Below, piece after piece: positions 160 to 46,514 of a stretch of 52,868 nucleotides of DNA. Below the pieces are notes generated by a model. It worked only from the letters and a program-made list of their open reading frames with translations, had not been told where the DNA came from and did no database searches. Each line of letters opens with the position of its first letter. Position 1 is the first letter of the stretch. The DNA is from Candidatus Latescibacterota bacterium. Its GTDB lineage: Bacteria; Latescibacterota; UBA2968. Both the position numbers and the translations under genes were made by a program. The stretch spans positions 1 through 52,868 of the forward strand of contig JAJEAX010000047.1 in assembly GCA_022822565.1 (NCBI GenBank), read 5' to 3'.

Positions 160-1122
160 ATGGGCAAAGTTGCTGGTATTTGGTTCGCGTTAGTCGTTTC
201 TGTTGGCGCGGCGGAAAAGCCGCAGGCGTTGCGCGTCTGGGCAGAGGACCGTTGGGCTGTGGTGACAGTGGGCGAAGTGACCGGAACTGTTGTGATTGTC
301 AGCCCAGCCGTCGGGCGAGAAATTGATTTTGATGAGGGCAATCAATTGGGCGTTTTTCAGGGTGTGACAGAATACACAAAGCACCACAACATGCCCACGC
401 TGACACAGCCGATAGCGGGATTTCAGTCTGCTGTATTTCTCAAATTGGCAGATGATCAATACGGCATCTGTGTTGCTTTTCGCGACGAGGTCGGCACGCG
501 CTATCGGTTGCTACACATCCGAGATGCGGAGGAATTGAGTCGCATTCGAGATTATATCCACCGGATGGCCGTTGTGCATGACGCGCCAAATTATCCATTG
601 GTGACAGATGAAAAAGTGACTTATGAAGTAATATCGCCTGTTTACCGCGCCCATGAGCGGTTACAAGTGAAAATGGCACTGGCAGATGGCGAGCAAATAA
701 AAGGTGAACTCTTGCCAATGATGGAATATGGGCAAATGCTCATCAACACGCCCCTGGGATTTCGACGGATCAAAATAGATGCAATTGACCAGATTCGCAT
801 TGCATCGCGCGGAGGCAAAAGGGTCGTAACCAGGACAGTCAGGAACGGTCTGAAGTACGGCATTTTGGGGGGGCTTACGGGATTACTCGCGGGTTGGTCT
901 TTTGAAGGCTTATCGGCCAAAGATGACATGATTTTTGGCGCTCTATTGGGCGGAACGGTTGGCGCTTCAGTCGGATTTTTAGATGGATTGCTGTCAATTG
1001 AACATGCACGAACATTTCGATTTGAACGCGGTGTAGCGAATAAAAAACCGAAGATCCGACTTTTGCTGCAGCAATTAAAGACACCCAAACCGATCTTTTT
1101 TTTATTTTCTTTCTCCATCTGA
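160..1122 (+). CDS. hypothetical exported/membrane protein with a C-terminal glycine-zipper segment
   Basis: ATG at 160 lies 7 nt after AAGGAG. The N-terminus has a hydrophobic stretch, GIWFALVVSVGAA. The C-terminus has GILGGLTGLLAGW..GALLGGTVGASVGF. No family was recognised. Confidence 0.6.
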   Translation: MGKVAGIWFALVVSVGAAEKPQALRVWAEDRWAVVTVGEVTGTVVIVSPAVGREIDFDEGNQLGVFQGVTEYTKHHNMPTLTQPIAGFQSAVFLKLADDQYGICVAFRDEVGTRYRLLHIRDAEELSRIRDYIHRMAVVHDAPNYPLVTDEKVTYEVISPVYRAHERLQVKMALADGEQIKGELLPMMEYGQMLINTPLGFRRIKIDAIDQIRIASRGGKRVVTRTVRNGLKYGILGGLTGLLAGWSFEGLSAKDDMIFGALLGGTVGASVGFLDGLLSIEHARTFRFERGVANKKPKIRLLLQQLKTPKPIFFLFSFSI

Positions 1123-1221
1123 TCGTAACCCAATCTTCACTCGCGCTTAATACGGAAGAAACAATGATACGTTATTTTTGTGTGTCATTATTCTGTGTCT
1201 CGTTCAGCAAGGAGTTGGATT

Positions 1222-2070
1222 ATGGTCAACGCTTCACCCAAACAATCAGATACCAGCCTCGAATACTATCTCAAAGAACTCTCCCACTCTCACCCTATCT
1301 CAGCAGAAGAAGAATTTGACCTCGTCGTCAAAATGAAGCGCGGTGACCTCAAAGCGCGCAATCGCCTGATCAAAGCCAATCTGCGTTTTGTGGTCAACGT
1401 GGCTCTGAAATACCGCAATCAAGGCGTGGCTCTGGCCGATTTGATCAGTGCTGGCAATGTGGGACTCATCACAGCTACCGAACGCTTTGACGAAACGCGC
1501 GGTTTCAAATTTATCTCTTATGCCGTCTGGTGGATTCGCCAGTCTATTTTACAAACACTCGCCGAACAGGGGCGTATGATTCGTTTGCCCATCAACCGAC
1601 TGGATCTGCTGCGTCGAATCAAAAACTTTAGCGATCAGTATCAACACAATAAAGGCCACATGCCCACAGAAAAAGAAATCGCCAATGAATTTCACATCAC
1701 CGAAGACCAGGTCAGTGATACACTGTCTCACAGTCCAATCGTATTTTCTCTGGACAAACCGATTCAGGACGAAGATATAACCCTCATCGATTTGATGCAC
1801 GACGAAGACCAGGAACTACCAGATGCTGCAATGTTTCACAATGCCCTGCGAGATGAAGTCAACGACCTGCTCCATACCCTGGATAATCGCGAAGCCGATG
1901 TCATTCGTCTATATTTCGGTCTCGAAGGCTCCAGTTGGACACTTCAGGCCATAGCCAACAAATATAGCCTCACGCGCGAGCGCGTACGCCAAATTAAAGA
2001 AAAAGCCCTGCGCAAATTGCGTCACCCCTCTCGAGGCCGCAAACTTATCGCGTATGCCGAAGCCGGCTAA
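1222..2070 (+). CDS. RNA polymerase sigma-70 family factor, short Bacteroidota sigma-A-like type (no region 1.1)
   Basis: ATG at 1222 follows AAGGAG. Region 2 reads ANLRFVVNVALKYRNQG..GNVGLITATERFDETRGFKFISYAVWWIRQSILQ, and region 4 reads LTRERVRQIKEKALRKLR. The FKFISYAVWWIRQSI block is as I remember it from Bacteroidota RpoD. Confidence 0.85.
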   Translation: MVNASPKQSDTSLEYYLKELSHSHPISAEEEFDLVVKMKRGDLKARNRLIKANLRFVVNVALKYRNQGVALADLISAGNVGLITATERFDETRGFKFISYAVWWIRQSILQTLAEQGRMIRLPINRLDLLRRIKNFSDQYQHNKGHMPTEKEIANEFHITEDQVSDTLSHSPIVFSLDKPIQDEDITLIDLMHDEDQELPDAAMFHNALRDEVNDLLHTLDNREADVIRLYFGLEGSSWTLQAIANKYSLTRERVRQIKEKALRKLRHPSRGRKLIAYAEAG

Positions 2071-2091
2071 CGCATTATCTGATAAAAAATG

Positions 2092-2130
2092 AAAAGCCTC
2101 TGAAGACACGCGCTTCAGAGGCTTTTTTTA
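2092..2130 (+). terminator. rho-independent terminator after the sigma factor gene
   Basis: AAAAGCCTCTGAAG-acacgcg-CTTCAGAGGCTTTT followed by a T-run. Confidence 0.85.
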
Positions 2131-2162
2131 TTTATCACCAAAACTTGATTTGTCTGAGGTTA

Positions 2163-2184
2163 TTATGTACATTGCTGTACATAA
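2163..2184. promoter_or_regulatory. perfect 9-bp inverted repeat, probable autoregulatory operator of the toxin-antitoxin operon
   Basis: TTATGTACA-ttgc-TGTACATAA sits directly upstream of the AAGGAGG RBS of the antitoxin gene. Confidence 0.6.
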
Positions 2185-2200
2185 TTGTAAAGGAGGACAA

Positions 2201-2434
2201 ATGAAAACTGTGACTTTCACTGAATTTCGTCAGCATGCGGCGGCGTGTTTAAATGCCGTTGAACAGGGCGAGACGTTTCGTATCTTGCGGCACGGCAAGC
2301 CCGTCGCTGATCTAACGCCAATAAAAACAAGCAACTCCGTGCCTTCCTGGAAACGGTGTATTGAACCAATCACGCTAAAAGGTATTTCTGTTTCGGATAT
2401 GATAATGAAAGAAAGAGATGAGTACGGACGATGA
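2201..2434 (+). CDS. Phd/YefM-type antitoxin
   Basis: MKTVTFTEFRQHAAACLNAVEQGETFRILRHGKPVADLTP is a typical Phd/YefM N-terminus. The ATG follows AAGGAGG. Its stop overlaps the next start (ATGA). Confidence 0.8.
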   Translation: MKTVTFTEFRQHAAACLNAVEQGETFRILRHGKPVADLTPIKTSNSVPSWKRCIEPITLKGISVSDMIMKERDEYGR

Positions 2435-2853
2435 ATGCTTTTTTTGATTCTTCTGCCCTTGTCAAAAGATATGTTGAAGAAGATGGACGAGAAAGAGTCA
2501 TCAATATCTTTGAAGAGGCAAGTGCTATAGGGGTAAGTGTTATCTGTTTTCCCGAGGTTATTTCGGCATTTTGCAGATTACAGCGAGAAGGGAATTTGGA
2601 CAAACCTCAGTATGAGCGAATTAAAGGCGATATGATTGCCGATTTTGAAGACTTCTTTATTTCTTCGATTACCCCACAAGTAAGAGGGTGTGTTACACGT
2701 CTTTTAGAGACATATTCTTTGCGTGCTATGGATGCACTGCACCTCGGAAGTGCTATTGAATGGCAAGCTGATACCTTTGTTTCGGGAGATAAACGTCAGA
2801 TTATTGCAGCTCAAAATGAAGGATTAGATGTACTGGATGTCCAAGATGAATGA
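2431..2853 (+). CDS. vapC: PIN-domain ribonuclease toxin (VapC family)
   Basis: MNAFFDSSALVKRYVEE.. carries the first acidic PIN residue. ..SLRAMDALHLGSAI.. and ..FVSGDKRQ.. are conserved PIN blocks. The gene is translationally coupled to the antitoxin. Confidence 0.85.
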   Translation: MNAFFDSSALVKRYVEEDGRERVINIFEEASAIGVSVICFPEVISAFCRLQREGNLDKPQYERIKGDMIADFEDFFISSITPQVRGCVTRLLETYSLRAMDALHLGSAIEWQADTFVSGDKRQIIAAQNEGLDVLDVQDE

Positions 2854-2934
2854 GGTTTTTTCCCTACTCTTTTGACTTTGCTTTATTTTTCTTTTTTCAC
2901 GTCACTTTTACCGAAACCCAACAGGAGGCAAGCG

Positions 2935-3504
2935 ATGGACGTTTTGGAAGCCATTCACACGCGGCGCACAATTTTTAAGTTCAAACCGGGCGGTGTGCCC
3001 AAAGATGTGATTGAAAAAATTTATGAAGCCGGTCTATGGGCACCCAATCACCATTTGACAGAACCGTGGCGATTTGTCGTCTTAGGAGAAGATACCAAAG
3101 AAATACTGGCGCAACGCTACAGCGAAATTCAGGAGGAAAAAGCCGCTGAAGGTGCCAGCGACGAGGCCAGGCGAATATTAAAAGAAGCCGGTTATGCCAA
3201 GTTCATGTCAAAGCCCACAATTATTGCGGTGGCGTGTTTGCAAGATGGCGATGAAATCAAGAACAGAGAAGATTATGCAGCCGCGTGTTGCGCCATGCAA
3301 AATGTACAGTTAGCAGCCTGGGCAGAAGGGGTTGGCATGCAGTGGAGCACAGGGCCGATTACACTGGAAGAAAACACCTACAAATTGTTGGGTGTAGATA
3401 CCGGCAGCGAATACATCATCGGATTTTTCTATACCGGGTATCCCGATGAAATTCCAGAACCGAGGCGGAAACCCCTCGAAGAAGTGCTGAGCTGGACGGA
3501 TTGA
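2935..3504 (+). CDS. nitroreductase family protein
   Basis: MDVLEAIHTRRTIFKFKP..GLWAPNHHLTEPWRFVV is the nitroreductase signature. ATG at 2935 follows AGGAGG. Confidence 0.85.
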   Translation: MDVLEAIHTRRTIFKFKPGGVPKDVIEKIYEAGLWAPNHHLTEPWRFVVLGEDTKEILAQRYSEIQEEKAAEGASDEARRILKEAGYAKFMSKPTIIAVACLQDGDEIKNREDYAAACCAMQNVQLAAWAEGVGMQWSTGPITLEENTYKLLGVDTGSEYIIGFFYTGYPDEIPEPRRKPLEEVLSWTD

Positions 3505-3515
3505 CTCCGCTAACC

Positions 3516-4301
3516 ATGAATGGTTTTGAATTTTTCGTCCTCTATCGCCTGCCCTATCTCGCAGTCCCTTTCTATCTCATCATGTTGAGCGTGCGGATAT
3601 GGGTATGGATGCGGTTTTACAACCCCGCGCTCAAGCTATTGCCACGAGCCAGAGGATCTGTGTATGGCGTATGGAAGCGGCAATACCGGCCAACCATTCA
3701 CATTTTTCCCGGATCGCGCTCACAAAGGACAGAATGGAAGCGCGCGATAAAGGGCTTTGTTTTTTTTACTGGTCTCTACAAGCGTGACAAAGTGCTGTGG
3801 ATGGGTTCCTGGTCGCTTCATTTGGGACTGTTGCTGGTAATTGTTGCCCATGCCCGCGTGATTTTGCCGCTTAATCTGGATCTGATCTGTTTGCGCATCG
3901 CATTGATCGGCAGTGGACTGATGACCGTGTCGGGCACTTATTTGTTGCTGCGTCGCATAATCATTCAGCGCGTGCGGGAAATTACGGACTTTCGGGACTA
4001 TCTGGCGGAATTCATCCTCCTGTCTTTTTCTTTAACAGCATTTCTCGTGATGTTAGACGGTGGCGTGTCATCCGAAGCCCTGCGCCACTATGTATCTGGG
4101 CTGTTGATGAACACAGTGGAAGTTATTGAAGTGCCAGACATGTTTGTCTGGCACATGCTCGCCGCCCAGCTATTGTTGATTGTGATCCCATTTTCTCATC
4201 TGTTGCATCTGGGCGGAATTTTTTTCAGTCGCGAATTTCTGGGCACGTCCGATACATTTGCTGGAGAGTTTGGATCGGGATTAAAAGATAGACGGAATTA
4301 A
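3516..4301 (+). CDS. NarI/DsrM/HdrE-like di-haem b membrane subunit (nitrate reductase gamma-like family)
   Basis: About 5-6 hydrophobic helices with conserved His positions (WSLHLGLLLVIVAHARV; FSHLLHLGGIFF). It lies immediately upstream of a CCG-domain Fe-S protein. The start could instead be TTG 3501, which overlaps the nitroreductase stop. Confidence 0.7.
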   Translation: MNGFEFFVLYRLPYLAVPFYLIMLSVRIWVWMRFYNPALKLLPRARGSVYGVWKRQYRPTIHIFPGSRSQRTEWKRAIKGFVFFTGLYKRDKVLWMGSWSLHLGLLLVIVAHARVILPLNLDLICLRIALIGSGLMTVSGTYLLLRRIIIQRVREITDFRDYLAEFILLSFSLTAFLVMLDGGVSSEALRHYVSGLLMNTVEVIEVPDMFVWHMLAAQLLLIVIPFSHLLHLGGIFFSREFLGTSDTFAGEFGSGLKDRRN

Positions 4302-4305
4302 ACGA

Positions 4306-5640
4306 ATGGAACGAGAAAAAAAATATATTCCACCAGGTCTGGCGGGCACGTATATGCGGCGCATTGCCGAATCGGATCCGTTTGTCCGCGAGATTCAGGA
4401 TGAACCATCTGCATTGCGCCTGTACATGGATACGTGTACCAAATGCGGGGTGTGCGCGCAGGAATGCCCGGTGTATTACGGGCAGCCCGATAAGCGTATG
4501 CATCCGGTGGAACGCTCCCGGCAAGTGATTCGTTTATACAAAAAGTACACGACATTTTGGGGGCGATTTTGGAATGCCATTTTTCCAAAGCCCGATTTTG
4601 AAAATAACGATGCCGAGTTATTTGCCGAGCGCATGTATGAGTGTTTGACATGCCGGCGATGTGCGGCATTTTGTCCTGTGGGAATCGATCATTCGGTGAT
4701 CTCGCGCGTTGGACGTTCGCTTGTCGATTTAATGGGTTTGACGCCGCCATCCCTGGCGCAGGGTACGCACAATTCATTTGAAACAGGCAATTTGGAAGGC
4801 GCGTCAGTTGAGGCATTTTTGGATGCGATTCAATTTATCGAAGAAGAACTCAAAGAAGAAACGGGACGAGATATTGCCATTCCCTTAGACCGCGAAGGCG
4901 CGGAAATTTTCTTTTTGCCACCTTCGGGCGATGTGCTGGTTTATGCTGAAAACTTAATGGGTATGGCAAAAATTTTTCACGCCATCGGTGCCGATTGGAC
5001 GATGAGCTCGCGGGCTTATGACGGATCGAATTTCGGATTTACGACCGGCAATAACTTTTCGATGAAGTACGAGAACAAGCACTACATTGACGCATGCGAA
5101 AAATTGGGATGTAAACTCATGGTGATGGGCGAATGCGGACATGCGTATCGGGTAATGAAGTTCATGGCCAGCGAAGGGCAGTGGTGGGGCACATTGCCTT
5201 TTGAGATTACCAGTGGGTTTGAATATACGGCACAACTTATTCGCACGGGCAAACTAAAATTGGACCCGGGCAAAAATCCAGATGTCGTGACCTATCACGA
5301 CGCTTGCCAATTTGCTGCCGGCTGTGGGATTGTTGAGGAACCCAGAGAGATTTTGAAAGCAACCTGCGCCGATTATCGCGAAATGCCCGATGGCGGGTAC
5401 ACACAGTGGTGTTGTGGTGGCGGCGGCGGATTATCGGCACTGCGCTCGGTGCGCGCGTTTCGGATGGAAATCTCGGGTAAAAAGAAAGCAGAGCAAATGC
5501 GCGAGACCGATGCGAAGATCGTATCAACTTCGTGTTTGCAGTGCCGCACACAATTAAAAGAAATCGCGCGCCATCACAAAATGCCCTTGCAAATTACAGG
5601 TGTACACGAGTTGGTAAACAATGCGATTGTACTGGAATAG
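4306..5640 (+). CDS. HdrD/DsrK-like Fe-S oxidoreductase with CCG domains
   Basis: Two ferredoxin-type motifs are present (CTKCGVCAQECP; CLTCRRCAAFCP), plus Cys-rich CCG-type segments (ECGHAYR, YHDACQFAAGCG, WCCGGGGG, STSCLQC). Confidence 0.8.
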   Translation: MEREKKYIPPGLAGTYMRRIAESDPFVREIQDEPSALRLYMDTCTKCGVCAQECPVYYGQPDKRMHPVERSRQVIRLYKKYTTFWGRFWNAIFPKPDFENNDAELFAERMYECLTCRRCAAFCPVGIDHSVISRVGRSLVDLMGLTPPSLAQGTHNSFETGNLEGASVEAFLDAIQFIEEELKEETGRDIAIPLDREGAEIFFLPPSGDVLVYAENLMGMAKIFHAIGADWTMSSRAYDGSNFGFTTGNNFSMKYENKHYIDACEKLGCKLMVMGECGHAYRVMKFMASEGQWWGTLPFEITSGFEYTAQLIRTGKLKLDPGKNPDVVTYHDACQFAAGCGIVEEPREILKATCADYREMPDGGYTQWCCGGGGGLSALRSVRAFRMEISGKKKAEQMRETDAKIVSTSCLQCRTQLKEIARHHKMPLQITGVHELVNNAIVLE

Positions 5641-5650
5641 CCAATAGCTC

Positions 5651-6844
5651 ATGTCTGATTTAATTTACATGGACAACGCGGCGACGACGTTTCCAAAACC
5701 TCCCAATGTGCTGGAAGACGCGCTGGCATTTTATCGAAAATACGGGGTAAATCCCGGACGTAGTGGCACGGACCTCGCGCGAGAGGCCGAGGCGATGGTT
5801 GCCGAAGCGCGTGCATCGCTCGCGGCGTTTTTTGGAGCTACGGACAATCCCGACCGGCTTGTGTTTACACACAATGCCTCGGATGCGTTGAATATTGCGA
5901 TTCAGGGTACATTAAAATCCGGCGATCACGTCATTACAACGCTTCTGGATCACAATTCGGTTTTGCGCCCGATTTATCACCTCTCAAAATACGAGGGAAT
6001 TGAAGCTACTTATGTAGGCTTTGGGGCAGATGGTTTTATAGACCCCGAGGATATTGATAGGGCGATCCGACCAAATACAAAACTCGTGGTGATGACCCAT
6101 GCATCCAATGTACTCGGCACAGTGCAGCCCGTAGCAGCAGTTGGCTCAGTCTGCCGCGCACGCGGTATCATTTTCTGCGTTGATGTGGCGCAAACAGCGG
6201 GCATGTTGCCCATCGATATGGAGGCGATGCAGGCCGATATTCTGTGTTTTACCGGACACAAGTCACTCATGGGACCAACGGGTACTGGTGGGATGTACGT
6301 GCGCGAAGGGGTGACAATTGCACCGTTGCGATACGGTGGGACGGGCGTGCGGTCGGAGTATCCCGATCACCTGAGCGAGTATCCCTGGCGATTGGAGTGT
6401 GGCACGGGCAATCTGATGGGCATTGCAGGCCTGCTGTACGCGCAGAAATGGATGCAACGCGAAGGCGTGGAAAATATTCATGCACGCGAGATGGCTTTAT
6501 TCAAACAACTGGTCAATGGCCTGCGCGAAGTCGATGGCACCATTTTGTATTGCGCTGAAAATCACGATCAACACGTACCTGTACTATCGGTCAATATCGA
6601 AGGGATGACGGCGAATAACGTGGGTACATTGCTGGATGTAAAGTTCAATGTAGCAACACGCACGGGACTGCAATGCGCGCCAAAGGTACATGAAACCCTG
6701 GGTACGAAAGCCATAAAGGGTACGGTACGTATTTCACTGGGACCCTTCAATACCGAAGCGCAAATTGAGACTGTGATCGAGGGATTGAGCGATATTTCCA
6801 AACGGCACGGGCGAATAAAAGGTCAGGTGCGGAATGGCGTATGA
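5651..6844 (+). CDS. class V aminotransferase-fold cysteine desulfurase
   Basis: MDNAATTFPKP; PLP-lysine motif FTGHKSLMGPTGTGG; catalytic Cys loop ATRTGLQCAP. Confidence 0.85.
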   Translation: MSDLIYMDNAATTFPKPPNVLEDALAFYRKYGVNPGRSGTDLAREAEAMVAEARASLAAFFGATDNPDRLVFTHNASDALNIAIQGTLKSGDHVITTLLDHNSVLRPIYHLSKYEGIEATYVGFGADGFIDPEDIDRAIRPNTKLVVMTHASNVLGTVQPVAAVGSVCRARGIIFCVDVAQTAGMLPIDMEAMQADILCFTGHKSLMGPTGTGGMYVREGVTIAPLRYGGTGVRSEYPDHLSEYPWRLECGTGNLMGIAGLLYAQKWMQREGVENIHAREMALFKQLVNGLREVDGTILYCAENHDQHVPVLSVNIEGMTANNVGTLLDVKFNVATRTGLQCAPKVHETLGTKAIKGTVRISLGPFNTEAQIETVIEGLSDISKRHGRIKGQVRNGV

Positions 6845-7157
6845 AATTGTGACGCTGGGTGGCAAAGAAATTGAGGTGGATGAAGATGGATTTATCCAGC
6901 AACCCGCGCTCTGGGACGAAGACGTGGCACGCGATCTGGCCCAACAAGATGGCATTGAAGAGATGACCGCAGATCACTGGCAGGTGGTATATTACATCCG
7001 CAATTACTGGTTGAAATTTGAAATTGCCCCTTTGATCCGCCGCTTGTGCAAAGAGACAGAGAAAGATATCGATACAATTTACGATCTGTTTTCTGCAGGT
7101 CCCGCAGATGGCGCGTGTAAAATCGCGGGATTGCCAACGCCTACGGGGTGTACGTGA
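6834..7157 (+). CDS. dsrC: DsrC-type sulfur relay protein (DsrC/TusE family, both C-terminal Cys present)
   Basis: HWQVVYYIRNYW..IAPLIRRLCK.. is followed by the C-terminal arm GPADGACKIAGLPTPTGCT. This has Cys at both the -2 and the -12 positions, whereas TusE lacks the inner Cys. The gene overlaps the desulfurase gene by 11 nt. Confidence 0.9.
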   Translation: MAYEIVTLGGKEIEVDEDGFIQQPALWDEDVARDLAQQDGIEEMTADHWQVVYYIRNYWLKFEIAPLIRRLCKETEKDIDTIYDLFSAGPADGACKIAGLPTPTGCT

Positions 7158-7158
7158 C

Positions 7159-8058
7159 CTATTGTCCCGTACGCGCCTGGATATTCGACATATCTTCAAC
7201 AACCGTGAGCAAACCCGAGTGGTCAAGCTCTCCGCGGTCTTTGACCATTGCGGTCTTGAAAAGCTCAAAAACCTCGCTGGTAACGGGCAAAGGCACGCCG
7301 AAATCATTGCTCGTTTTCTGGATGATATTGAGGTCTTTGTAGTGCAGGCGAATGCGAAAACCGGGATCAAAATCGCCGTTGACCATGCGCTCGCCCCTGT
7401 TTTCAAGCACGCCACAACGCGCGAGGCCCCCGCTGAGCACCTGAACGATTTTGATTGGATCAACGCCTGCTTTGGTGCCCATTGTGAGGGCTTCGGATAC
7501 GCCAGCAATAGTGACGGCAACGAGAATTTGGTTGCACGCTTTCACGGTTTGTCCCGCACCGAGAGGTCCACACAAAATCGCACTTTGGCCCATAATGTCA
7601 AAGAGCGGTTTGACCGCGTTGAACGTATCTTCATCGCCGCCAACCATAATGGAAAGGGTGGCGTTTTGAGCGCCGATATCGCCGCCGCTGACGGGAGCAT
7701 CGAGACTTTGAACGCCTTTTTCCGCGAGCACCTCCCCCACCTGTGTGGTGACACTGGGCGCAATCGTACTCATATCGACAAAAATCAGGCCATCGTGCGC
7801 GCCTTCAATAATGCCGCCCTCGCCCAAAGCGACCTCCTCAACATCGGGTGAATCGGGCAACATGGTGATAACAATATCGCTTTGTTCAGCCACCTCTTTG
7901 CCAGAATGCGCTTCTGCCGCTCCTCTTCCGACGAGTTCATCAACTGCATCTCGATTGCGGTTGTGTACTGCAAGTTCATATCCAGCATCTATTAAATGAC
8001 CGGCCATCGGTTTGCCCATGATTCCGAGACCGATAAATCCAATTTTTGGTTTCGACAT
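7159..8058 (-). CDS. NAD(P)-dependent 3-hydroxyisobutyrate / 2-hydroxy-3-oxopropionate reductase family dehydrogenase
   Basis: MSKPKIGFIGLGIMGKPMAGHL is a Rossmann motif. DAPVSGG and KACNQ are family blocks. ATG at 8058 follows AAGGAG. Confidence 0.85.
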   Translation of the reverse strand: MSKPKIGFIGLGIMGKPMAGHLIDAGYELAVHNRNRDAVDELVGRGAAEAHSGKEVAEQSDIVITMLPDSPDVEEVALGEGGIIEGAHDGLIFVDMSTIAPSVTTQVGEVLAEKGVQSLDAPVSGGDIGAQNATLSIMVGGDEDTFNAVKPLFDIMGQSAILCGPLGAGQTVKACNQILVAVTIAGVSEALTMGTKAGVDPIKIVQVLSGGLARCGVLENRGERMVNGDFDPGFRIRLHYKDLNIIQKTSNDFGVPLPVTSEVFELFKTAMVKDRGELDHSGLLTVVEDMSNIQARTGQ

Positions 8059-8107
8059 GTAGTGAACTCCTTTCAACGAAAAATATAATTTGTCAAAACG
8101 ATAATTT

Positions 8108-9031
8108 CTACAACTTCCTTAACTCTGCAAGCGAGGGAAAGGCATGGCGATCCCACACCCGCACGATCACCCCATCCACGATATAAGCCAGTCGCGGATA
8201 GCCATGCCCCCGGGTCAACCGCTTGAAATCGGCAATAGAAATGGTGGCGATGGCAAAGCGCGGTTGGAACTGAATTTTGAACTGCATGGTATCGGGATGG
8301 TCTTTGGGGAACTGGCTCAAAGCAATCAATTTGGGCACCTCTGGATCGGCAGCCCATGCATTGAGCTTGGGCACGGCGACCTGGCAATAGTGGCAACCTG
8401 GACTGAACAACTCGATTAGATAAGCTCCCCGCGTCAAATCGACATCCGCATCCAGCAGAGAGACACCTTTCAGATAATCACCCACCTGCAGGTCTGACTC
8501 GACGATGCGATCGCGCTCGGGCAAATATCGAAACCCCAGCACCGTTAGGGAAACCAATCCACCGACCAGAACCACCCATCTTCCCCATGCCCACAGTGAC
8601 ACAGACCGCCGGCGCAGACCCCACCAGGAAAAGACCAGCAACCCCAGCATAAGAAAATTTTCCACCATCGCCTCAACCGGCGAGCGTTCGATCAGCGTGC
8701 CAAAACACCCGCAACTCTCCCCCATCCCCCGTTTCCATGCCTGAGCGGTAATCACAAGAAAAAAAACCATCATTACCGCACCGATGGGCAAAAAGAGACG
8801 CGGCTTCCAATCGACCAAAAGCGCGATACCCACCAAACATTCCAGCGGGCCGAGCAACAGTGCGAACCTGGCGACCGTTTCCACTGTCTCGCGTTCAACA
8901 AAAATCTGGACGGGCACCACAGCCTCCCAAAAAAAGAGCACGGGATCCCATATCTTAGTCAGACCAGCCACCAGAAAAACCACCCCCATAATCCGCTGGC
9001 TTACCCACAGGCTCTTTTCTAATCCACTCAT
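8108..9031 (-). CDS. DoxX/MauE-type membrane domain fused to a thioredoxin-like CxxC domain
   Basis: The N-terminal half has 4-5 TM helices with FLVAGLTKIWDP and a CGCFG motif. The C-terminal domain carries LFSPGCHYCQ (CxxC). Confidence 0.7.
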   Translation of the reverse strand: MSGLEKSLWVSQRIMGVVFLVAGLTKIWDPVLFFWEAVVPVQIFVERETVETVARFALLLGPLECLVGIALLVDWKPRLFLPIGAVMMVFFLVITAQAWKRGMGESCGCFGTLIERSPVEAMVENFLMLGLLVFSWWGLRRRSVSLWAWGRWVVLVGGLVSLTVLGFRYLPERDRIVESDLQVGDYLKGVSLLDADVDLTRGAYLIELFSPGCHYCQVAVPKLNAWAADPEVPKLIALSQFPKDHPDTMQFKIQFQPRFAIATISIADFKRLTRGHGYPRLAYIVDGVIVRVWDRHAFPSLAELRKL

Positions 9032-9045
9032 AGATGTTTCCTCTT

Positions 9046-9876
9046 TCAGTTAATAAATAACGGCTGATTGGATCGCGGTACAATACCCGCTTCTTCTGCC
9101 CGCGCAAAAAGATCGACCAGTGCAGCCTCGCCATCTGCACCGTAATCCAACGTGTACTCATTGACGTAGAGATCGATGTGCTGCTGCATCACGGCTTCGT
9201 CCATCTCCTGTGCGTGCTGGCGAATATAATTTTTAACTGCATCGGGATTCGAATGTGCATATTCCACACTGGCACAAAGAGATACATCAATCTTTTGAGT
9301 TTTTTCTACGCCCAGATCGCGTCGCGCAAGAATACCGCCGAGCGGAATGGGATGTCCCGTAGATCCCTCCCACCACTCGCCCAGATCAATGACTTTGTGC
9401 AAACCGTAATCGGGATAGGTAAAACGCGATTCGTGGATGATCACACCCGCATCGACATCGCCTTTTTGCGTAGCCTCCATTATCTCGTGAAAAGGCATCG
9501 CGACGAGGTTGTCAAGCTCAGGATTAAAGAGACGCAGCAAGAGCGCAGCCGTGGTGAGCTCGCCTGGAATAGCGATGCGTTTTCCCAAAAGATTGCGCGG
9601 ATCAAGGGAGTCGGACGCGATAACGAGCGGGCCACACCCGCGCCCCAATGCTCCCCCTGAATGCAACAGGCAATAGTGGTCGCGCATAAGTGCAAACGCA
9701 TGGAATGATATCTTGGTCATATCCAATTTACCAGCCATAGCCATGCGATTCAAGGTCTCGATATCTTCGAGAACCTCGCGGCATCTGGGCGCGCCATCTA
9801 TCTTCCCGTGAACCAGACCGTAAAAAATATACGTATCATTGGGACAAGGAGAATAACCAAGAGAAATGCGGGACAT
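9046..9876 (-). CDS. mqnD: 1,4-dihydroxy-6-naphthoate synthase (futalosine pathway)
   Basis: MSRISLGYSPCPNDTYIFYGLVHGKID.. is the characteristic MqnD N-terminus. The length is about 276 aa and the gene is adjacent to mqnB. Confidence 0.8.
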   Translation of the reverse strand: MSRISLGYSPCPNDTYIFYGLVHGKIDGAPRCREVLEDIETLNRMAMAGKLDMTKISFHAFALMRDHYCLLHSGGALGRGCGPLVIASDSLDPRNLLGKRIAIPGELTTAALLLRLFNPELDNLVAMPFHEIMEATQKGDVDAGVIIHESRFTYPDYGLHKVIDLGEWWEGSTGHPIPLGGILARRDLGVEKTQKIDVSLCASVEYAHSNPDAVKNYIRQHAQEMDEAVMQQHIDLYVNEYTLDYGADGEAALVDLFARAEEAGIVPRSNQPLFIN

Positions 9877-9889
9877 GGTGAACCTCGTG

Positions 9890-10609
9890 TCATAGAGCCT
9901 CAATGAATTTTCGCGCTGCAATTTGCACCCTCTGGACAGCGCGTGGAATATCCCAGACATCTTTGTTGCGGTCTTCCACATGGTTGCTTATAGCGCGTAA
10001 TTCAAGAAATGGAACCGCATAAAGGGTGCTAATATGCGCCGCAGCCGCGCCCTCCATGTTTTCGCATATCGCATTGAAACGCGCTGCCAGTTCATTGCCA
10101 ATATCCTCGCGCCCCGTACATTGTTGCACCGTAATAAAAGGCCCTTGCACAACGCATTCACCCGATTGTTCGAGTATGTGTTGCGCTCTGGCGACAAGCG
10201 CGGGATCAACAGGATACGTATTGTAATAATCGCGGCCTGCTGACAGGACGGGAATACCGATCTCATCGGCAGGAGACCATCCAGCAGGTGTGATAACGCC
10301 TAAATCGCCATAATTTTCCTCGGTCGCCAGTGCGAGATCGCCCTTGTCCAGGCCACTGCCGAGATAAGCACCACCAATGCCGATTTGCAGGACGAGTTCG
10401 GGATCAATTTCTTGCAGTGCAACAGTCAGAGCCTGCGCCGTATTGACCGCGCCAATACCCGTTTCAACCAGAACAACGGACCTGGTACCAATCATACCGC
10501 GAACCCAGGTGCGATGTCCCCTGTATTGCGTTGTCACCTGTTGAAGGCTGTCGCGCAAACACTGTTGCTCATAAGCCGTAGCTGTCAGAATGAGCAGAGG
10601 ATCGGGCAT
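9890..10609 (-). CDS. mqnB: futalosine hydrolase (nucleoside phosphorylase-I fold)
   Basis: It has PNP_UDP-type blocks (VLVETGIGAVNTA; QIGIGGA; ENMEGAAAA). It is adjacent to and co-oriented with mqnD. The start could be 10630. Confidence 0.7.
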   Translation of the reverse strand: MPDPLLILTATAYEQQCLRDSLQQVTTQYRGHRTWVRGMIGTRSVVLVETGIGAVNTAQALTVALQEIDPELVLQIGIGGAYLGSGLDKGDLALATEENYGDLGVITPAGWSPADEIGIPVLSAGRDYYNTYPVDPALVARAQHILEQSGECVVQGPFITVQQCTGREDIGNELAARFNAICENMEGAAAAHISTLYAVPFLELRAISNHVEDRNKDVWDIPRAVQRVQIAARKFIEAL

Positions 10610-10619
10610 GGTCGGGCAC

Positions 10620-11639
10620 CTAAAAAGCAAAGGGCATCTTCAGAGACACGGTTCGCCGTGCGGATTCGTACCATCCCTGAGGCGCGAAATGATCGGAATG
10701 CAAATAGCATTTTACATCTACCTGATCGCACCCTTCCGTAAAGGTCAAAACACGACTCATTGGCACGTTCTTTTGCCCGTGAAATTTTGAAATTGCAGCG
10801 ACATTGATAAATGTCGTGCCCCACTTCTGTTCCACATGCGAACGCCCGCCGGTCGTATCTTCGGGATTTGTATGTGTATGCCCGCCCAGCCAAATATCAC
10901 AAACACCGGGATTATCTGTCAGAATACCTTCAAATTGTCCGCTATCTGGCTTGCCACCCACCCAGTAGAGATACGAAGCCCCAATAGGCGCGCCATCGTC
11001 AAAACGACCGTGATAGCCTTCATCCACCCCCACCCAATCGAGCGAAGCAACCGTCGTCTCTTTTAACATATGGTGATGTGCAGAAATGATAATTCTATCC
11101 CGATTGGAAAGCACCATATCGCGCCACCATTCATAAGTCTCCTGCGTGACTGCTCCTGCGGGATAACCGCCCCTTTTACCTCGCCCCACAGGCGGTCCAC
11201 CGTCATTGCGATCTCCCATACACAAAAACAGAATATTGCCCACCTCAAAAGAATACCGATCCCACTGTCCGGTTACGGGATACGGTCGTTGGTCGGCATA
11301 AACACCCGAATATTCGGAACTCGCACCCATCGGATCCACCCACTTTTGAAACCACCACTGCGTCTCTTCATCGGGACCACTCGCATCGTGATTGCCCACG
11401 ATATTATAAAAATGCGACCGCGGATGTCTGGTCGATACACTGTATTGCCGAACCACCTCCTCGCCTTCTTCATCATCCGGCGGTTCCTGTGCCCCGGATA
11501 GATCGCCAATATCGAGCATCACATCCCATTCAAAATCTCGCTCTGCCTGCAAAATGGCTGTTTCCAAACTCTTTCGCCCATGCCGCAGATCCGTTCCCAC
11601 ATGTGCATCTCCACCAGCCCAGAGTGTGAATGCGCTCAT
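10620..11639 (-). CDS. calcineurin-like metallophosphoesterase
   Basis: GGDAHVG, IGDLSG, VGNHDA and SAHHH..GGHTH are metallophosphoesterase motifs. The ATGA overlap with the upstream PhyH gene suggests translational coupling. Confidence 0.8.
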   Translation of the reverse strand: MSAFTLWAGGDAHVGTDLRHGRKSLETAILQAERDFEWDVMLDIGDLSGAQEPPDDEEGEEVVRQYSVSTRHPRSHFYNIVGNHDASGPDEETQWWFQKWVDPMGASSEYSGVYADQRPYPVTGQWDRYSFEVGNILFLCMGDRNDGGPPVGRGKRGGYPAGAVTQETYEWWRDMVLSNRDRIIISAHHHMLKETTVASLDWVGVDEGYHGRFDDGAPIGASYLYWVGGKPDSGQFEGILTDNPGVCDIWLGGHTHTNPEDTTGGRSHVEQKWGTTFINVAAISKFHGQKNVPMSRVLTFTEGCDQVDVKCYLHSDHFAPQGWYESARRTVSLKMPFAF

Positions 11640-12520
11640 TGCGACCCCCGCCAACCGATGTCAATACTCGTGTATCCATCCGTATATCGCTTCAAATGGT
11701 CCGGTATATTTTTCAAAAACCACTGGCCCGATTCCGGTATCTCCCAAGGAATATCGATCCTGTGATTGCGATCTCTAAACCCAATCGCGCACGAAAGGCG
11801 CGTATCCTCCAACCGATTGGGAAATGCGCCGTGGTACGTGCGGTGGGCAAACACAATCATATCTCCCCCATTTGTGAACAGAGGCACCAACCCCGGAATA
11901 TCAAATCCCGCGTAGCGATGTTCTTCCTCACCTTCGGGATAAAACGAGCGTCGATCTGTCGTCATCTTAAATCCTTCGGGACCTTCCCATCCCTTCACAT
12001 GGGAATCTTCAATCACACACAGACCGCCGTGAACCGGACGCGATCCCGTCAGGTAAAACCACTTGCCCGACGGCCAGAGTCCGCGATTCAACACATCGCC
12101 CGAGTTCAAAATTTTATCGGAATATCCACACCAATCCGTATGCCACCCCACGGGCTGAGACTCCGACATGCGGATAATCGCAGCAGAGCGATGGACGGTC
12201 AGATCATCTGAACCAATTAAATGCCGGTGAATATCCATAAATGGCTCGTATTCCAAAAGCTCCCATGCACCCGGTCCAGATTCGATCCACGCATGTCGCG
12301 TGCGACTCTGCCCGCCCTCTAACGTACCGTCTGGATCTGTACCGTCATACACTGCCTGTTTGAGCTTCTCCACAATCTCATCCGGCAACACATCTTTAAT
12401 AATCGCAAACCCGTGCGCTTCCAGGCATTCGGACATTGCATCGAGTTCATCTGTCTCAAACTCATAACAATAGCCCAAATCGGGCTTTTTAATATGTGAG
12501 TAGTCTGCTTTTAATGCCAT
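11636..12520 (-). CDS. phytanoyl-CoA dioxygenase (PhyH) family Fe(II)/2-oxoglutarate oxygenase
   Basis: PhyH-like layout with GWHTDW (the HxD facial-triad region) and a distal FAHRTYHGAF His. AAGGAG precedes the ATG. Confidence 0.7.
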   Translation of the reverse strand: MALKADYSHIKKPDLGYCYEFETDELDAMSECLEAHGFAIIKDVLPDEIVEKLKQAVYDGTDPDGTLEGGQSRTRHAWIESGPGAWELLEYEPFMDIHRHLIGSDDLTVHRSAAIIRMSESQPVGWHTDWCGYSDKILNSGDVLNRGLWPSGKWFYLTGSRPVHGGLCVIEDSHVKGWEGPEGFKMTTDRRSFYPEGEEEHRYAGFDIPGLVPLFTNGGDMIVFAHRTYHGAFPNRLEDTRLSCAIGFRDRNHRIDIPWEIPESGQWFLKNIPDHLKRYTDGYTSIDIGWRGSQ

Positions 12521-15228: not shown

Positions 15229-15229
15229 T

Positions 15230-16522
15230 TTAATTTTCACTCTCATCCAAACGCGCGCGAAACCCGGGCAAAAGAGCTGTTACCAGAGCCGTTGCAACCA
15301 TGGCGATACTGGTGTGTAAACCGAGGGCAAAAGGCGCGCCATAGACTTCGGTGAGTTTGCCAATTTGCAGGCTACCAAGCGGTCCTGCGCCAATGGCGAG
15401 GACAAGTGTACCCATTGCGCGATCTCTCATATCATCTCGGGCAGCGATAAGCATAATTGAGCTTTGCATCACAGTAAAAAATGCATGCCCCAGGCCAGCA
15501 AGTATGAGGAGAAAGATGGCGAGTGGAAAGGCAACCGACGTGCCGAACAGGGTGAGTGCACCAACCCAGGACGTGCTAAAGGCAAAGACAAACAGCGCAA
15601 GAGACTGGAAAAGCGATCCAGCGGAAAATATCCAGCCGCGACTGAGGCGCGAGCGCAATATATTAACCGCGTAAAGGCCAAAAAACGCCCCAATACCATT
15701 GCACGCGCCCAGCACACCGTATTCAAGTGGCCCCTTGTGAAGAATATCGTGTGTAAAAATGGGCAGGATGGTCTGGTAGGGAAACGCCAGAAAATTCATG
15801 ATCACAGTAATGAGTAGCGTACCCATAATCGGCTGGCTGGTACGTATGTATTGCAAGCCTTCGCGCATCAGCGTCCACGGAGAGGTTTTGAGAATCGCGG
15901 GATGACGCGGCACTTTGACGCGCAGCATGATCAGGAATGAAATAAGGGAAATAAAAAAAATAGTGATATAACAGTCCAGTACGCCAAATAAAGCGTAAAT
16001 ATATCCGCTTAAAAAAGGCCCAATCATGCGAGCGATATTTTGGGTAACGCTTTCGAGCATCATCGCTTCAACCGTGCGCTGCTTGCCGACCAGATCGGGT
16101 ACCAGGGCGCGACGAGCAGTCCAGTTGAGAGACCACGAGATGCCAAATAACACTGCGCCAACCGCAAGATGCCAGAATGCCAGCCGGTTGGTCCAAATCA
16201 GTAGGCCAATCATTGCGAGGACCAGTACGCTGAGCCACTGCGAGAAAATCACGATACGAATGCGCCCAACGCTATTGATCAATGGGCCAGCGATAAAACC
16301 GATGAGCAACAGGGGAATAGATCGGTAAAAGCCAATCAGTGCGACGTCAAACGCAGAGTGGGTAATCTCAAAAACGAGCCATCCCACGACAATCATTTCC
16401 ATCCACATGGCCTGCCACCAGAGCATATTGCTCAGGATCAGGTAGCGAAAGCCGCGATTGCCCAGGGGAGCAAGGGACCCTCGAAAGGAGATGACAAATT
16501 TTCCCGTTCTTCTAATGCGCAT
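15230..16522 (-). CDS. MFS transporter
   Basis: About 12 hydrophobic helices and a typical MFS loop between TM2 and TM3. The substrate is unknown. Confidence 0.75.
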   Translation of the reverse strand: MRIRRTGKFVISFRGSLAPLGNRGFRYLILSNMLWWQAMWMEMIVVGWLVFEITHSAFDVALIGFYRSIPLLLIGFIAGPLINSVGRIRIVIFSQWLSVLVLAMIGLLIWTNRLAFWHLAVGAVLFGISWSLNWTARRALVPDLVGKQRTVEAMMLESVTQNIARMIGPFLSGYIYALFGVLDCYITIFFISLISFLIMLRVKVPRHPAILKTSPWTLMREGLQYIRTSQPIMGTLLITVIMNFLAFPYQTILPIFTHDILHKGPLEYGVLGACNGIGAFFGLYAVNILRSRLSRGWIFSAGSLFQSLALFVFAFSTSWVGALTLFGTSVAFPLAIFLLILAGLGHAFFTVMQSSIMLIAARDDMRDRAMGTLVLAIGAGPLGSLQIGKLTEVYGAPFALGLHTSIAMVATALVTALLPGFRARLDESEN

Positions 16523-16588
16523 GGCCGAGTTTCAAATCCACCCTTCAGAACATGGAGAATATAACCCGTTGCGATGACCTCTGCTCTT

Positions 16589-17161
16589 TTACCGCCCAAT
16601 CTCAAAATTACGCGCCACGGCCCGTGCCATGGTCACGAGAACATCGCTGTCGATGCGCTCGCGATAATTGGGATTAATATATTGAAATTGGATCTTGCGA
16701 TTGGGTGCTATCACAAAGACCGATGGCACGGGCAAAGCACGTCTTCTGTTATTCATAAACGCAACACCATAAGCCTTTGCCGCTTCAAATTCCACATCCG
16801 ATAATAGCGTAAACTCGAGGCCCACTCGATCGCGCACCTCAGCCAATTTTTCAGGTGGGTCGGGCGCAATAGCAATAATTTCAAAACCCACCTCCTCCAA
16901 CTGTGACTTCAGTTCTTGCAGTTGTCCCAACTGCCGTCGGCAGTGCGGTCACCAGTATCCGCGATAAAAAACCAAAACCGTCGGCTTTTTGTGCGCACCC
17001 AGGTCAAAATCCCGCCCATTCGCATCGACGAGCGTCAGCGCGGGAACTTCATCGCCAACCATCAGGGGATGCACTTTATTGGGCGCATCGGGCAATTGCG
17101 CGTGCCCCCATCCAAAAGTACCAAACACCACCAGCAATGCGATCCAGATTGTTTTCTTCAT
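16589..17161 (-). CDS. secreted AhpC/TSA-redoxin (Prx-like) protein with in-frame UGA, a candidate selenoprotein (U-x-x-C)
   Basis: The two track ORFs (16949..17188 and 16589..16930) are in one frame, separated only by TGA at 16949-16951. Read-through gives VLVFYRGYW-U-PHCRRQL.., matching the FxRGxWCPxC redoxin motif. GAGGAG precedes ATG 17161, and the signal peptide is MKKTIWIALLVVFGTFGWGHA. Confidence 0.75.
16918..16951 (-). promoter_or_regulatory. UGA codon plus candidate bacterial SECIS hairpin
   Basis: On the mRNA: UGA-CCGCACUGCCGACG-GCAGUUG-GGA-CAACUGC. This is a perfect 7-bp stem starting 15 nt after the UGA, with a G-rich apical loop 22-24 nt downstream. Confidence 0.55.
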
Positions 17162-40645: not shown

Positions 40646-40865
40646 TGTGGTTCTCCTCCATCTTGAACTCTGTTGCGAGACCCGATTATCCAGGGTCCCA
40701 GTGGAAACGGCTGACTCTTTAGTTCTGCAGTCTTCTCTCAGTCCGAACAAAGGCAGCCTCCTTTCTTCCCTCTTGATCTGCAGTTAGCGAATCATAGTGA
40801 AATGCAGATGAATTTGTCAAAAGATGGTTTCTCGACGGTGGCGATCGAATCCTTACTTGATCTTT

Positions 40866-46242: not shown

Positions 46243-46514
46243 ACCATCTCCCTTATTCAATCTTCTAATCCCGAAAACCAGGTCCCCCTTCCCGATTCGC
46301 TCAGCACCCGCAGCGTCACCAGGGAAGTCGCCTGACGGCAGGGGCGCCGTTACGAATGACGTCTTTGATCTGGGCACAGAAGGGATCCGGGATCCGCACT
46401 GGCTTCTAGTTTCCGCTGCGAGCCACCCAAAAGGCGTTGCGAAGGTTTCAGATGTACTTGACGTCGGCTCTGGGGATTTGCTAGAGTTATATCGCCGCAA
46501 TCCGTCAGGAAAAG

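Follow-up and report, generated by a model that had tools for sequence, protein, structure and literature searches.

The closest described relatives of the system reported here are the DsrC-DsrMK(JOP) systems of sulfate and sulfite reducers. In Archaeoglobus fulgidus, DsrMK(JOP) acts as a menaquinol:DsrC-trisulfide oxidoreductase (PMC10861901; bioRxiv 10.64898/2026.08.25.746951). Its DsrK subunit is characterized by two cubane motifs, a single CXnCCGXnCX2C motif and a T/GECGH cysteine (PMC10861901), and a non-cubane cluster and a non-ligating catalytic cysteine have been assigned to these motifs (PMC10861901; bioRxiv 10.64898/2026.08.25.746951). For the membrane subunit DsrM, quinol oxidation has been proposed to take place at DsrM itself in DsrMK-only systems (DsrM-1), whereas in DsrM-2 an insertion in the loop at transmembrane helix 3 (TMH3), together with arginines, occludes the quinol site (bioRxiv 10.64898/2026.08.25.746951). 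DsrC and DsrMK are taken to mark dissimilatory sulfur metabolism that is based on DsrAB. Here, we describe a locus in a 52,868-nucleotide stretch of DNA from a Candidatus Latescibacterota bacterium (contig JAJEAX010000047.1 of assembly GCA_022822565.1; we call the whole stretch the window), in which genes for a DsrM-like protein (M), a DsrK-like protein (K), a cysteine desulfurase (CSD) and a two-cysteine DsrC (C) follow one another. We refer to these four genes as the module.

With the DsrC-DsrMK(JOP) systems the module has in common the Cys-X10-Cys arm of DsrC (a protein that shares 64-66% identity with dsrAB-linked DsrCs), the DsrK motifs and a NarI-type dihaem DsrM, and, as in the DsrMK-only (DsrM-1) systems, the M and K subunits stand alone. 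It differs from DsrMK(JOP) in that DsrAB, the maker of the DsrC trisulfide, is missing and a CSD lies inside the operon. The substrate would be cysteine-derived S(0), taking two electrons, whereas theirs is a sulfite-derived trisulfide that takes four. A second point of comparison is offered by the SufS-SufE/SufU and CsdA-CsdE pairs. As in these, the enzyme is dependent on pyridoxal 5′-phosphate (PLP), and its small partner is predicted to sit at the catalytic-loop region and the dimer interface. DsrC, however, is unrelated to SufE, SufU and CsdE, a membrane reductase takes the place of Fe-S scaffold genes, and the genome has a separate SufS besides the module CSD. Finally, E. coli TusE is a member of the same family as DsrC (PF04358, TIGR03342) and likewise a persulfide carrier that acts after a desulfurase, but it lacks the inner cysteine, where it has Thr (...AKQATKIAGLPKPVKCI).

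We propose that M, K, CSD and DsrC form one DsrAB-free unit, in which the CSD loads DsrC and the DsrMK-like pair reduces it with menaquinol, and we give this reading an even chance of being right. It is supported by the gene content and motifs, a conserved linkage, an exact co-occurrence, the failure to find dsrAB, two assemblies of the same combination and a predicted interface. We found no publication that connects a cysteine desulfurase with DsrC or DsrMK, nor one that connects DsrC or DsrMK with Latescibacterota, Bacteroidales or Ignavibacteria in this way. New here are the closed-genome evidence against DsrAB, the exact phyletic co-occurrence, the independent assembly and the predicted CSD-DsrC interface.

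A conserved four-gene unit

The window is one contig of a 4.6-Mb metagenome-assembled genome (MAG; 433 contigs, 91.5% complete). The original prediction, made from the sequence of the window, had described five co-directional genes whose boundaries overlap or nearly touch. All five are there, head to tail on the plus strand between 2935 and 7157:

2935-3504, plus strand: nitroreductase-family flavin mononucleotide (FMN) protein, YdjA-like (PF00881, E 3e-27)
3501-4301, plus strand: DsrM-like NarI-type membrane cytochrome b of the short type, 266 residues (PF02665, E 9e-10)
4306-5640, plus strand: DsrK-like cytoplasmic Fe-S subunit of the HdrD/DsrK family, 444 residues (NF045796 DsrK, 316 bits)
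5651-6844, plus strand: CSD, a class-V aminotransferase of the TIGR01977 (EF2568) family (424 bits, cut-off 377)
6834-7157, plus strand: two-Cys DsrC (PF04358, 114 bits, cut-off 24.9, E 6e-33)

The nitroreductase gene has an ATG at 2935, within a longest open reading frame that begins at 2872, and the likelier ATG of the DsrM-like gene is at 3516. The nitroreductase and DsrM-like genes overlap by 4 bp (or are 11 bp apart), gaps of 4 bp and 10 bp precede and follow the DsrK-like gene, respectively, and the CSD and DsrC genes overlap by 11 bp.

We compared the window proteins by tblastn with about 25 related loci in Latescibacterota. The order M-K-CSD-DsrC is found in all those that extend far enough to show it, and this order and the touching frames hold down to identities of 75% for DsrK, 42% for DsrM, 65% for the CSD and 76% for DsrC. 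Judged from these comparisons, the gene arrangement is not a product of chance, and the linkage to the desulfurase that had been pointed out in the window recurs in other genomes.

The nitroreductase gene adjoins DsrM within the genus only. In more distant members of the family it is either placed 1-3 kb upstream, with unrelated genes in between, or not found in the locus, and the genes that intervene before DsrM include a PhyH dioxygenase gene (on the opposite strand, directly upstream of DsrM), a gene for a methyl-accepting chemotaxis protein (MCP) and an enolase-family gene. Because its adjacency is confined to the genus, we take the conserved unit to be the four genes M-K-CSD-DsrC. The five-gene unit that was first proposed thus shrinks to these four, with the nitroreductase a mere neighbour; synteny rules it out as a fifth subunit.

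Genes for thioredoxin-fold proteins flank some related loci. A gene of the AhpC/TSA-Redoxin type lies 3′ of DsrC in deep-branching Latescibacterota-type loci (for example L061:3498-4016, L037:9219-9743, L087, L088 and L090). Locus L150, which has the order C-M-K-CSD, carries a gene for a secreted or lipoprotein-like thioredoxin (2910-3404) and a MarR gene, divergent upstream.

Catalytic features of the four proteins

The CSD has the catalytic loop RTGLQCAP, containing Cys342, and a PLP-binding lysine, Lys204, in the motif TGHK; both residues are invariant across 30 module CSDs. With models of other desulfurase-type enzymes it reaches 334 bits for SclA (NF040779, cut-off 525) and 259 bits for SufS (cut-off 475), and its best solved relatives in the PDB are of the SufS type.

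The C-terminus of DsrC reads GACKIAGLPTPTGCT, that is, Cys95-X10-Cys106 followed by one residue, in the arm GAC95KIAGLPTPTGC106T. Both this C-terminus and the RTGLQCAP loop had been quoted correctly in the original prediction. Neither Cys95 nor Cys106 varies in 30 module DsrCs that represent both module types, and the two arm cysteines are kept in all CSD-linked DsrCs (76/76). The protein scores 109 bits with TIGR03342 (cut-off 53.5) and 76 bits with the TusE equivalog model, against a cut-off of 191. Its top PDB matches are the DsrCs of Pyrobaculum aerophilum, A. fulgidus and Desulfovibrio, with a TusE-like chain reaching only E 6e-8; the solved relatives nearest to it come from DsrAB-bearing organisms.

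In the DsrK-like protein we find two CX2CX2CX3CP motifs (Cys44/47/50/54 and Cys113/116/119/123), a GECGH cysteine (Cys277) and one CCG motif (Cys334...Cys369-Cys370-Gly...Cys410-X2-Cys413), and all of these cysteines are invariant in 20 homologues. The PDB contains no close DsrK; the sole match, 9ojn, is to the CCG domain (E 3e-11).

In the DsrM-like protein, His107, His117 (together HX9H) and His236 fall into alignment columns in which canonical DsrM also has His, and His218 (FVWH), aligned by eye, matches the FVLH/FFIH of short and canonical DsrMs. The four haem-ligand histidines of DsrM, in two transmembrane helices, are therefore in place. An insertion of about 15 residues, present in the two DsrMs of DsrMKJOP type in our alignment, is missing. 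This insertion may be the loop that in DsrM-2 occludes the quinol site, and its absence would be in keeping with the DsrM-1 type. By its motifs, the pair is of the DsrM/DsrK type that was originally named, with the restriction that it represents a short, DsrMK-only type that falls below the NCBIfam DsrK and DsrM cut-offs.

DsrAB and other sulfur genes in the genome

In a model search of the MAG, the best match to dsrA scored about 33 bits (cut-off 393) and that to dsrB about 37 bits (cut-off 341.5), and these weak matches are to a fused NIR_SIR protein of about 760 residues on contig C257. The fused protein (C257, about 15300-16960) has two NIR_SIR domains and is conserved order-wide; these genomes have no other protein of the sulfite/nitrite-reductase type. 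In 40 relatives, including 13 members of the genus with single-contig assemblies (95-99% complete), no match to dsrB exceeded 42 bits, at the same cut-off, and dsrB was not found in 10 module-bearing genomes outside the genus, eight of which have the module in the order C-M-K-CSD. The genomic co-occurrence of DsrC with DsrAB is not observed here, and the absence of dsrAB, first noted within the field of view of the window, extends to the MAG, the 40 relatives and the 10 other genomes, none of which has a match over the cut-off.

Other sulfur genes were looked for in the same genome. Of aprAB, aprA was searched for and not found. There is one DsrC-family gene and one DsrK-like gene genome-wide. 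CCG domains occur in three proteins, the module DsrK and two others of 714 and 811 residues, and no sHdr-like set is apparent among them (hdrA and hdrC were not searched for). A search for tusA and dsrE gave only one clear TusA gene and a single DsrE-family gene (PF02635), both on contig C217 and accompanied by a TusA/MetE-like fusion; a TusBCD set is not present, there being one PF02635 match genome-wide (MnmA was not searched for). SufS-, IscS- and NifS-like desulfurases are encoded elsewhere in the genome, which makes the module CSD an extra, dedicated copy. The locus contains no DsrJ, DsrO, DsrP, DsrD, DsrN or DsrT; no genome-wide search for J, O and P was made.

Two of the contigs named here or below carry further sulfur- or selenium-related genes. 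The C217 cluster (238-2364, minus strand) encodes the TusA (80 residues), the DsrE-family protein (120 residues) and a 500-residue protein that combines a weak TusA-like N-terminus with a MetE-type (Meth_synt_2) catalytic domain; it may represent a sulfur-relay-fed homocysteine/methionine step. Contig C369 carries SelD (3296-4219, minus strand) with one in-frame TGA, which likely encodes selenocysteine, and a sulfite-oxidase-family gene about 1 kb away. Of the 151 Latescibacterota genomes sampled, 116 have SelD, which in most cases contains this TGA as well.

Co-occurrence within and beyond Latescibacterota

Our sample of the phylum comprised 151 Latescibacterota genomes. In one family (f1), 26 of the 29 genomes have DsrC; in two others (f2 and f3), none of the 19 and 64 genomes, respectively, has it, and five further genomes with DsrC belong to two distant families. 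A CSD that exceeds the TIGR01977 cut-off occurs in exactly the same 26 genomes of f1, always beside DsrC, and is absent from the same three. Outside f1 it was found in 0/19 genomes of f2 and 0/64 of f3, and a single near-cut-off match elsewhere does not lie on the DsrC contig.

To cover other phyla, we scanned species-representative genomes with a profile of the CSD family, which yielded 80 loci. In 48 of these, the CSD gene has an adjacent DsrC gene and DsrK-like gene, nearly always in the order C-M-K-CSD; several of the remaining 32 loci are cut by contig ends. One such locus, on a 1.9-Mb metagenomic contig, encodes a 57%-identical CSD, and before it come genes for a two-Cys DsrC, a membrane protein of 208 residues and a DsrK-like protein of 430 residues. 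Among the carriers of this arrangement are Bacteroidales (for instance Butyricimonas muris and Bacteroidales bacterium CF, whose genome is closed), Prolixibacteraceae, Lentimicrobiaceae, Rikenellaceae and Muribaculaceae, as well as Ignavibacteria, one Phycisphaerae MAG and a further Latescibacteria MAG. Far from being confined to this genome, the module is widespread in other phyla, where its gene order is different.

The Bacteroidales/Ignavibacteria operon has the same four components as the window, the same CSD loop and a two-Cys DsrC, and its CSD is 52-57% identical to that of the window. It differs in gene order (C-M-K-CSD against M-K-CSD-C) and in its DsrK, which is only 31% identical and belongs to another clade. 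Its DsrCs are 44-53% identical to the window's and form a clade of their own. Its membrane subunit, of about 208 residues, lacks the counterpart of His218 in 4/4 aligned sequences and that of His117 in 3/4.

Evidence for more than one assembly

Outside its own clade, the nearest relatives of the window's DsrC (64-68% identity, 105 residues) stand in dsrA-dsrB-dsrN-dsrC-dsrT-dsrMKJOP loci, and in the DsrC tree the window clade nests among dsrAB-linked DsrCs rather than with TusE or RspA. Together with the PDB matches, this identity and this nesting bear out the claim that the protein is a bona fide two-Cys DsrC.

The DsrK-like protein leads to another set of relatives. Outside its clade, the nearest DsrKs (48-53% identity, about 445 residues) are encoded in operons in which a MerR-like helix-turn-helix (HTH) gene is followed by DsrC, a short DsrM and DsrK. 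Their hosts are Gemmatimonadota, Zixibacteria, Planctomycetota, Myxococcota, Elusimicrobia and others, and the operons often lie beside dsrAB-dsrN. In these HTH operons DsrK has the same length as in the module and DsrM is equally short. In contrast to the module, however, their single-domain DsrC has a Tyr in place of the inner Cys (GAYRLAGLPRPxGC), a 215-residue tandem-DsrC is often present, and no CSD was found within 9 kb in any of about 55 HTH-type loci. The neighbouring tandem-DsrC protein, of about 215 residues, keeps only the inner cysteine (GACRIAGLPFFG), such that the two DsrC arm cysteines are split between two proteins (L066, L093, L095, L099, L101, L106, L112, L114, L115, L117, L118 and others).

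In the DsrK tree (90 rows), the short DsrKs of HTH type form the sister group of the window clade (96 in the Shimodaira-Hasegawa-like approximate likelihood ratio test, SH-aLRT). The window clade groups with canonical DsrK, and a branch with full support separates it from the CSD-linked DsrKs of Bacteroidota type. A single clade of CSD-linked DsrKs is rejected (log-likelihood difference, delta lnL, 282; approximately unbiased (AU) test, p 5e-99; 37-row alignment, LG+G4), and so is a single clade of CSD-linked DsrCs (AU p 0.003; 0/200 bootstrap trees). The CSDs of the two module types are sister groups in our sample; module orthologues of the window CSD have identities of at least 64%, and the next matches, at 54-59%, belong to the broad family.

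Because the groups were named post hoc and DsrC is short, the case for a separate origin is strong for DsrK and moderate for DsrC. With these two strengths, the trees indicate that the combination arose no fewer than two times, from different stock of DsrMK and of DsrC, which argues for functional coupling. That a canonical-type DsrC and a different DsrMK lineage appear to have been joined to the same CSD family is the strongest comparative argument that the parts cooperate.

A predicted interface between the desulfurase and DsrC

We predicted the complex of a CSD dimer with DsrC in a three-chain job, for which about 30 module sequences were aligned per protein. The CSD-DsrC score was 0.66, compared with 0.02 for the best of three controls. 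The mark of 0.66 is reached by 58/80 solved complexes and 2/110 mismatched pairs, a calibration that is only rough here because the self-made alignments and the three-chain job differ from its set-up. The runs agree in at least 70% of contacts, and the partner has a predicted local distance difference test (pLDDT) score of at least 86. In the predicted arrangement, DsrC residues 67-92, which make up the body and the C-terminal arm's root, contact CSD residues flanking the Cys342 loop (320-331 and 385-386), and further contacts reach residues 41 and 44 of the second CSD protomer. To our knowledge, there is no solved CSD-DsrC complex that the model could have remembered. The prediction supports binding of DsrC by the CSD and speaks in favour of the hand-over from CSD to DsrC that was envisaged originally.

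Genomic surroundings

Two neighbouring genes on the other strand belong to menaquinone synthesis:

9046-9981, minus strand: MqnA/MqnD-family gene (PF02621, E 1e-82)
9890-10630, minus strand: futalosine hydrolase MqnB (TIGR03664, 219 bits, cut-off 125)

These matches agree with the earlier identification of futalosine-pathway genes near the module. Their presence in the window indicates that the organism makes menaquinone, which we use as context only.

Upstream of the nitroreductase gene lies a sigma-70 gene and, between the two, a Phd/YefM antitoxin and PIN-domain toxin pair (2150-2853). We regard the pair as a variable insertion, because some near-identical genomes of the genus have it and others do not. 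Downstream of DsrC, a tartronate-semialdehyde-reductase-like gene is convergent, and a gene for a PhyH-type Fe(II)/2-oxoglutarate dioxygenase (11636-12520, minus strand) follows 4 kb downstream of the module. Promoter-like sites are no more frequent than in shuffled sequence, in a scan that does not cover promoters of the Fibrobacteres-Chlorobi-Bacteroidetes (FCB) group. The sole strong terminator (2091-2127) lies 3′ of the sigma-factor gene and says nothing on the operon.

In two sponge metatranscriptome libraries, contigs span all five genes, and one of them, of 13 kb, also crosses the convergent neighbour. We do not count these contigs as evidence of expression: strand, ends and transcription cannot be read from them, and DNA carry-over is possible. 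The stretch 1100-8300 was met almost only in sponge metagenomes (with few from coral or marine samples) from about ten studies, and single samples hold several strain variants of it at 90-99% identity.

Further along the window, a cluster for sulfated glycans (12535-46572) encodes a heparinase II/III-like protein (12535-15246), sulfatases (19079-20485, 25605-27059 and 44641-46572), sugar transporters of the major facilitator superfamily (MFS), a TonB-dependent receptor (37451-40750) that includes a CarboxypepD_reg domain, and a DUF6785/DUF6784 protein. The rest of the window thus fits a sponge-associated degrader of sulfated glycans, and we saw no direct link to the module.

Discussion

In the reaction cycle that we propose, the CSD, as a PLP enzyme, would convert cysteine to alanine and keep the sulfur as a persulfide on Cys342. 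DsrC would dock by the catalytic loop and take over the sulfane sulfur on its penultimate cysteine, Cys106. Cys95 would then resolve this persulfide, yielding H2S and a Cys95-Cys106 disulfide, or else a bridged form would hold the sulfur. DsrC's C-terminal arm would move into DsrK, where electrons from menaquinol would arrive via the two haems of DsrM, such that sulfide is set free and reduced DsrC is restored. The net reaction would be cysteine + menaquinol to alanine + H2S + menaquinone. This would enable turnover of the desulfurase and make cysteine sulfur an electron sink at the membrane. The scheme amounts to what would be the second half of the DsrMK(JOP) reaction, fed by cysteine rather than by sulfite.

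The original prediction of a quinone-linked relay fed by cysteine persulfide gains from the linkage, the co-occurrence and the predicted binding. Its electron direction and chemistry are matters that we infer, as are the sulfur transfer, the chemical form bound to DsrC, energy conservation and physiology. Several points weigh against it. The biochemistry of the module is, for any organism that carries it, something that we infer from sequence, and sequence does not constrain the direction of the electrons. If Cys106 carries a persulfide, one cysteine suffices for a two-electron reduction, and the conservation of Cys95 is not fully explained. A rough standard-free-energy estimate places the potential of cysteine/alanine + H2S at about -0.1 V, close to menaquinone, which would leave little energy available. 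Among the protein models, the DsrK-like protein, at 316 bits, stays below the NF045796 equivalog cut-off of 400, although this is still its best model (TmcB 220, HmcF 201), and the DsrM-like protein reaches 48 bits against the NF038037 cut-off of 300. As the MAG is 91.5% complete and in 433 contigs, the statement that dsrAB is absent leans on the closed genomes of the genus. The sampled genomes are kin, so that the exact co-occurrence reflects essentially one gain kept together and does not constitute a statistical sample, and for the AU tests we named the groups with the first trees already in view. Lastly, the genome encodes a haem-copper oxidase subunit I and four Oxidored_molyb (sulfite-oxidase-family) proteins, which makes it conceivable that these parts are used oxidatively.

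A bolder version of the scheme, which we put forward tentatively and with some doubt, would make the module a DsrAB-independent respiratory branch, that is, a cysteine-fed menaquinol:DsrC-persulfide/disulfide oxidoreductase with organic sulfur as terminal acceptor and with charge separation. Such a branch would have been assembled at least twice and would operate in sponge Latescibacterota, in gut and sediment Bacteroidales and in Ignavibacteria.

The haem-copper oxidase and the four Oxidored_molyb proteins would find a use if the module ran the other way. The DsrMK-like pair would then oxidize the sulfur with which the CSD has loaded DsrC (as trisulfide or in oxygenated form), passing electrons to menaquinone and an aerobic chain; sulfite-oxidase-type enzymes would finish the oxidation, and cysteine sulfur would be the donor. 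O2-dependent PhyH dioxygenases nearby and the habitat, sponge tissue, are in keeping with this. In addition, the non-cubane cluster of DsrK has been proposed to handle oxygenated sulfur species (bioRxiv 10.64898/2026.08.25.746951), and DsrMK(JOP) is thought to be reversed in sulfur oxidisers (PMC10504309; bioRxiv 10.64898/2026.08.25.746951). We nonetheless judge an oxidative role unlikely. Known oxidative Dsr systems require rDsrAB to take the sulfur from DsrC, and none was found; DsrEFH is not there either, with one DsrE-family gene only (dsrL was not searched for). Moreover, the module is frequent among strictly anaerobic Bacteroidales of gut and rumen, which have no high-potential acceptor at hand, and the DsrC groups with dsrAB-dsrN-dsrC-dsrT-dsrMKJOP loci, a layout taken as reductive.

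Transfer from a cysteine desulfurase to a small carrier is the rule in thiolation pathways, as in the IscS-TusA-TusBCD-TusE-MnmA relay of E. coli. By analogy, DsrC, which forms one family with TusE (TIGR03342), could pass the sulfur of the CSD to a thiolation enzyme for tRNA, a cofactor or Fe-S clusters, with the DsrMK-like pair only re-reducing a DsrC disulfide; the thioredoxin/peroxiredoxin-like genes 3′ of DsrC in deeper-branching loci, and before DsrC in L150, would suit such a relay. It is an improbable one, however, in view of the arm: TusE needs the penultimate Cys alone, whereas all 76 CSD-linked DsrCs keep both cysteines. The genome has no TusBCD set beyond its single DsrE-family gene, and no thiolation enzyme is conserved in the operon. 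A membrane reductase linked to quinol would be an unusual partner for biosynthesis, and the patchy distribution of the module in the phylum is a poor match to a housekeeping modification.

Two cysteines that are vicinal in space are a classical ligand for a selenotrisulfide. The CSD might accordingly be a SclA-like selenocysteine lyase, DsrC might carry a selenotrisulfide, and the DsrMK-like pair might reduce it to selenide for SelD. SclA is the second-best NCBIfam model of the CSD, and the genome has a SelD with an in-frame TGA. The SclA score of 334 bits is far below the cut-off of 525, however, and no selenium gene is conserved beside the module. SelD occurs in 28/29 genomes of f1, 19/19 of f2 and 59/64 of f3, whereas among these families the module is confined to f1; being near-universal in the class, SelD has a distribution unrelated to that of the module. 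We consider a function in selenium metabolism very unlikely.

The weakest alternative, raised by the original prediction itself, is that of a spare DsrC-DsrMK copy belonging to a hidden full dsrAB(D)...MKJOP system, with the desulfurase an accidental neighbour; incomplete recovery of the MAG (91.5%) and the spare short dsrMK copies seen elsewhere (the Gemmatimonadota HTH-DsrC-DsrMK operons next to dsrAB-dsrN) would allow for it, but it is contradicted, and left with a negligible chance, by the dsrA and dsrB scores (about 33 and 37 bits against 393 and 341.5), by the lack of any match over the dsrB cut-off in 40 relatives, by the failure to find aprA, by the single DsrC and single DsrK-like gene of the genome and by the conserved, co-distributed linkage to the CSD.

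The reading that we prefer, a DsrAB-free unit in which DsrC is loaded by the CSD and reduced by the DsrMK-like pair, lends itself to a direct test: four soluble and membrane proteins together with menadiol suffice, and assays exist for DsrMKJOP of A. fulgidus. An operon that includes a CSD, in closed genomes without DsrAB, means that metagenomic matches to dsrC or dsrMK are not readable as sulfite or sulfate reduction. The module may represent an unrecognised route from cysteine to sulfide, or from cysteine to the quinone pool, which bears on the sulfide in guts, sediments and animal symbioses. If true, the bolder, respiratory version would place sulfur respiration in groups that have never been counted as sulfur respirers.

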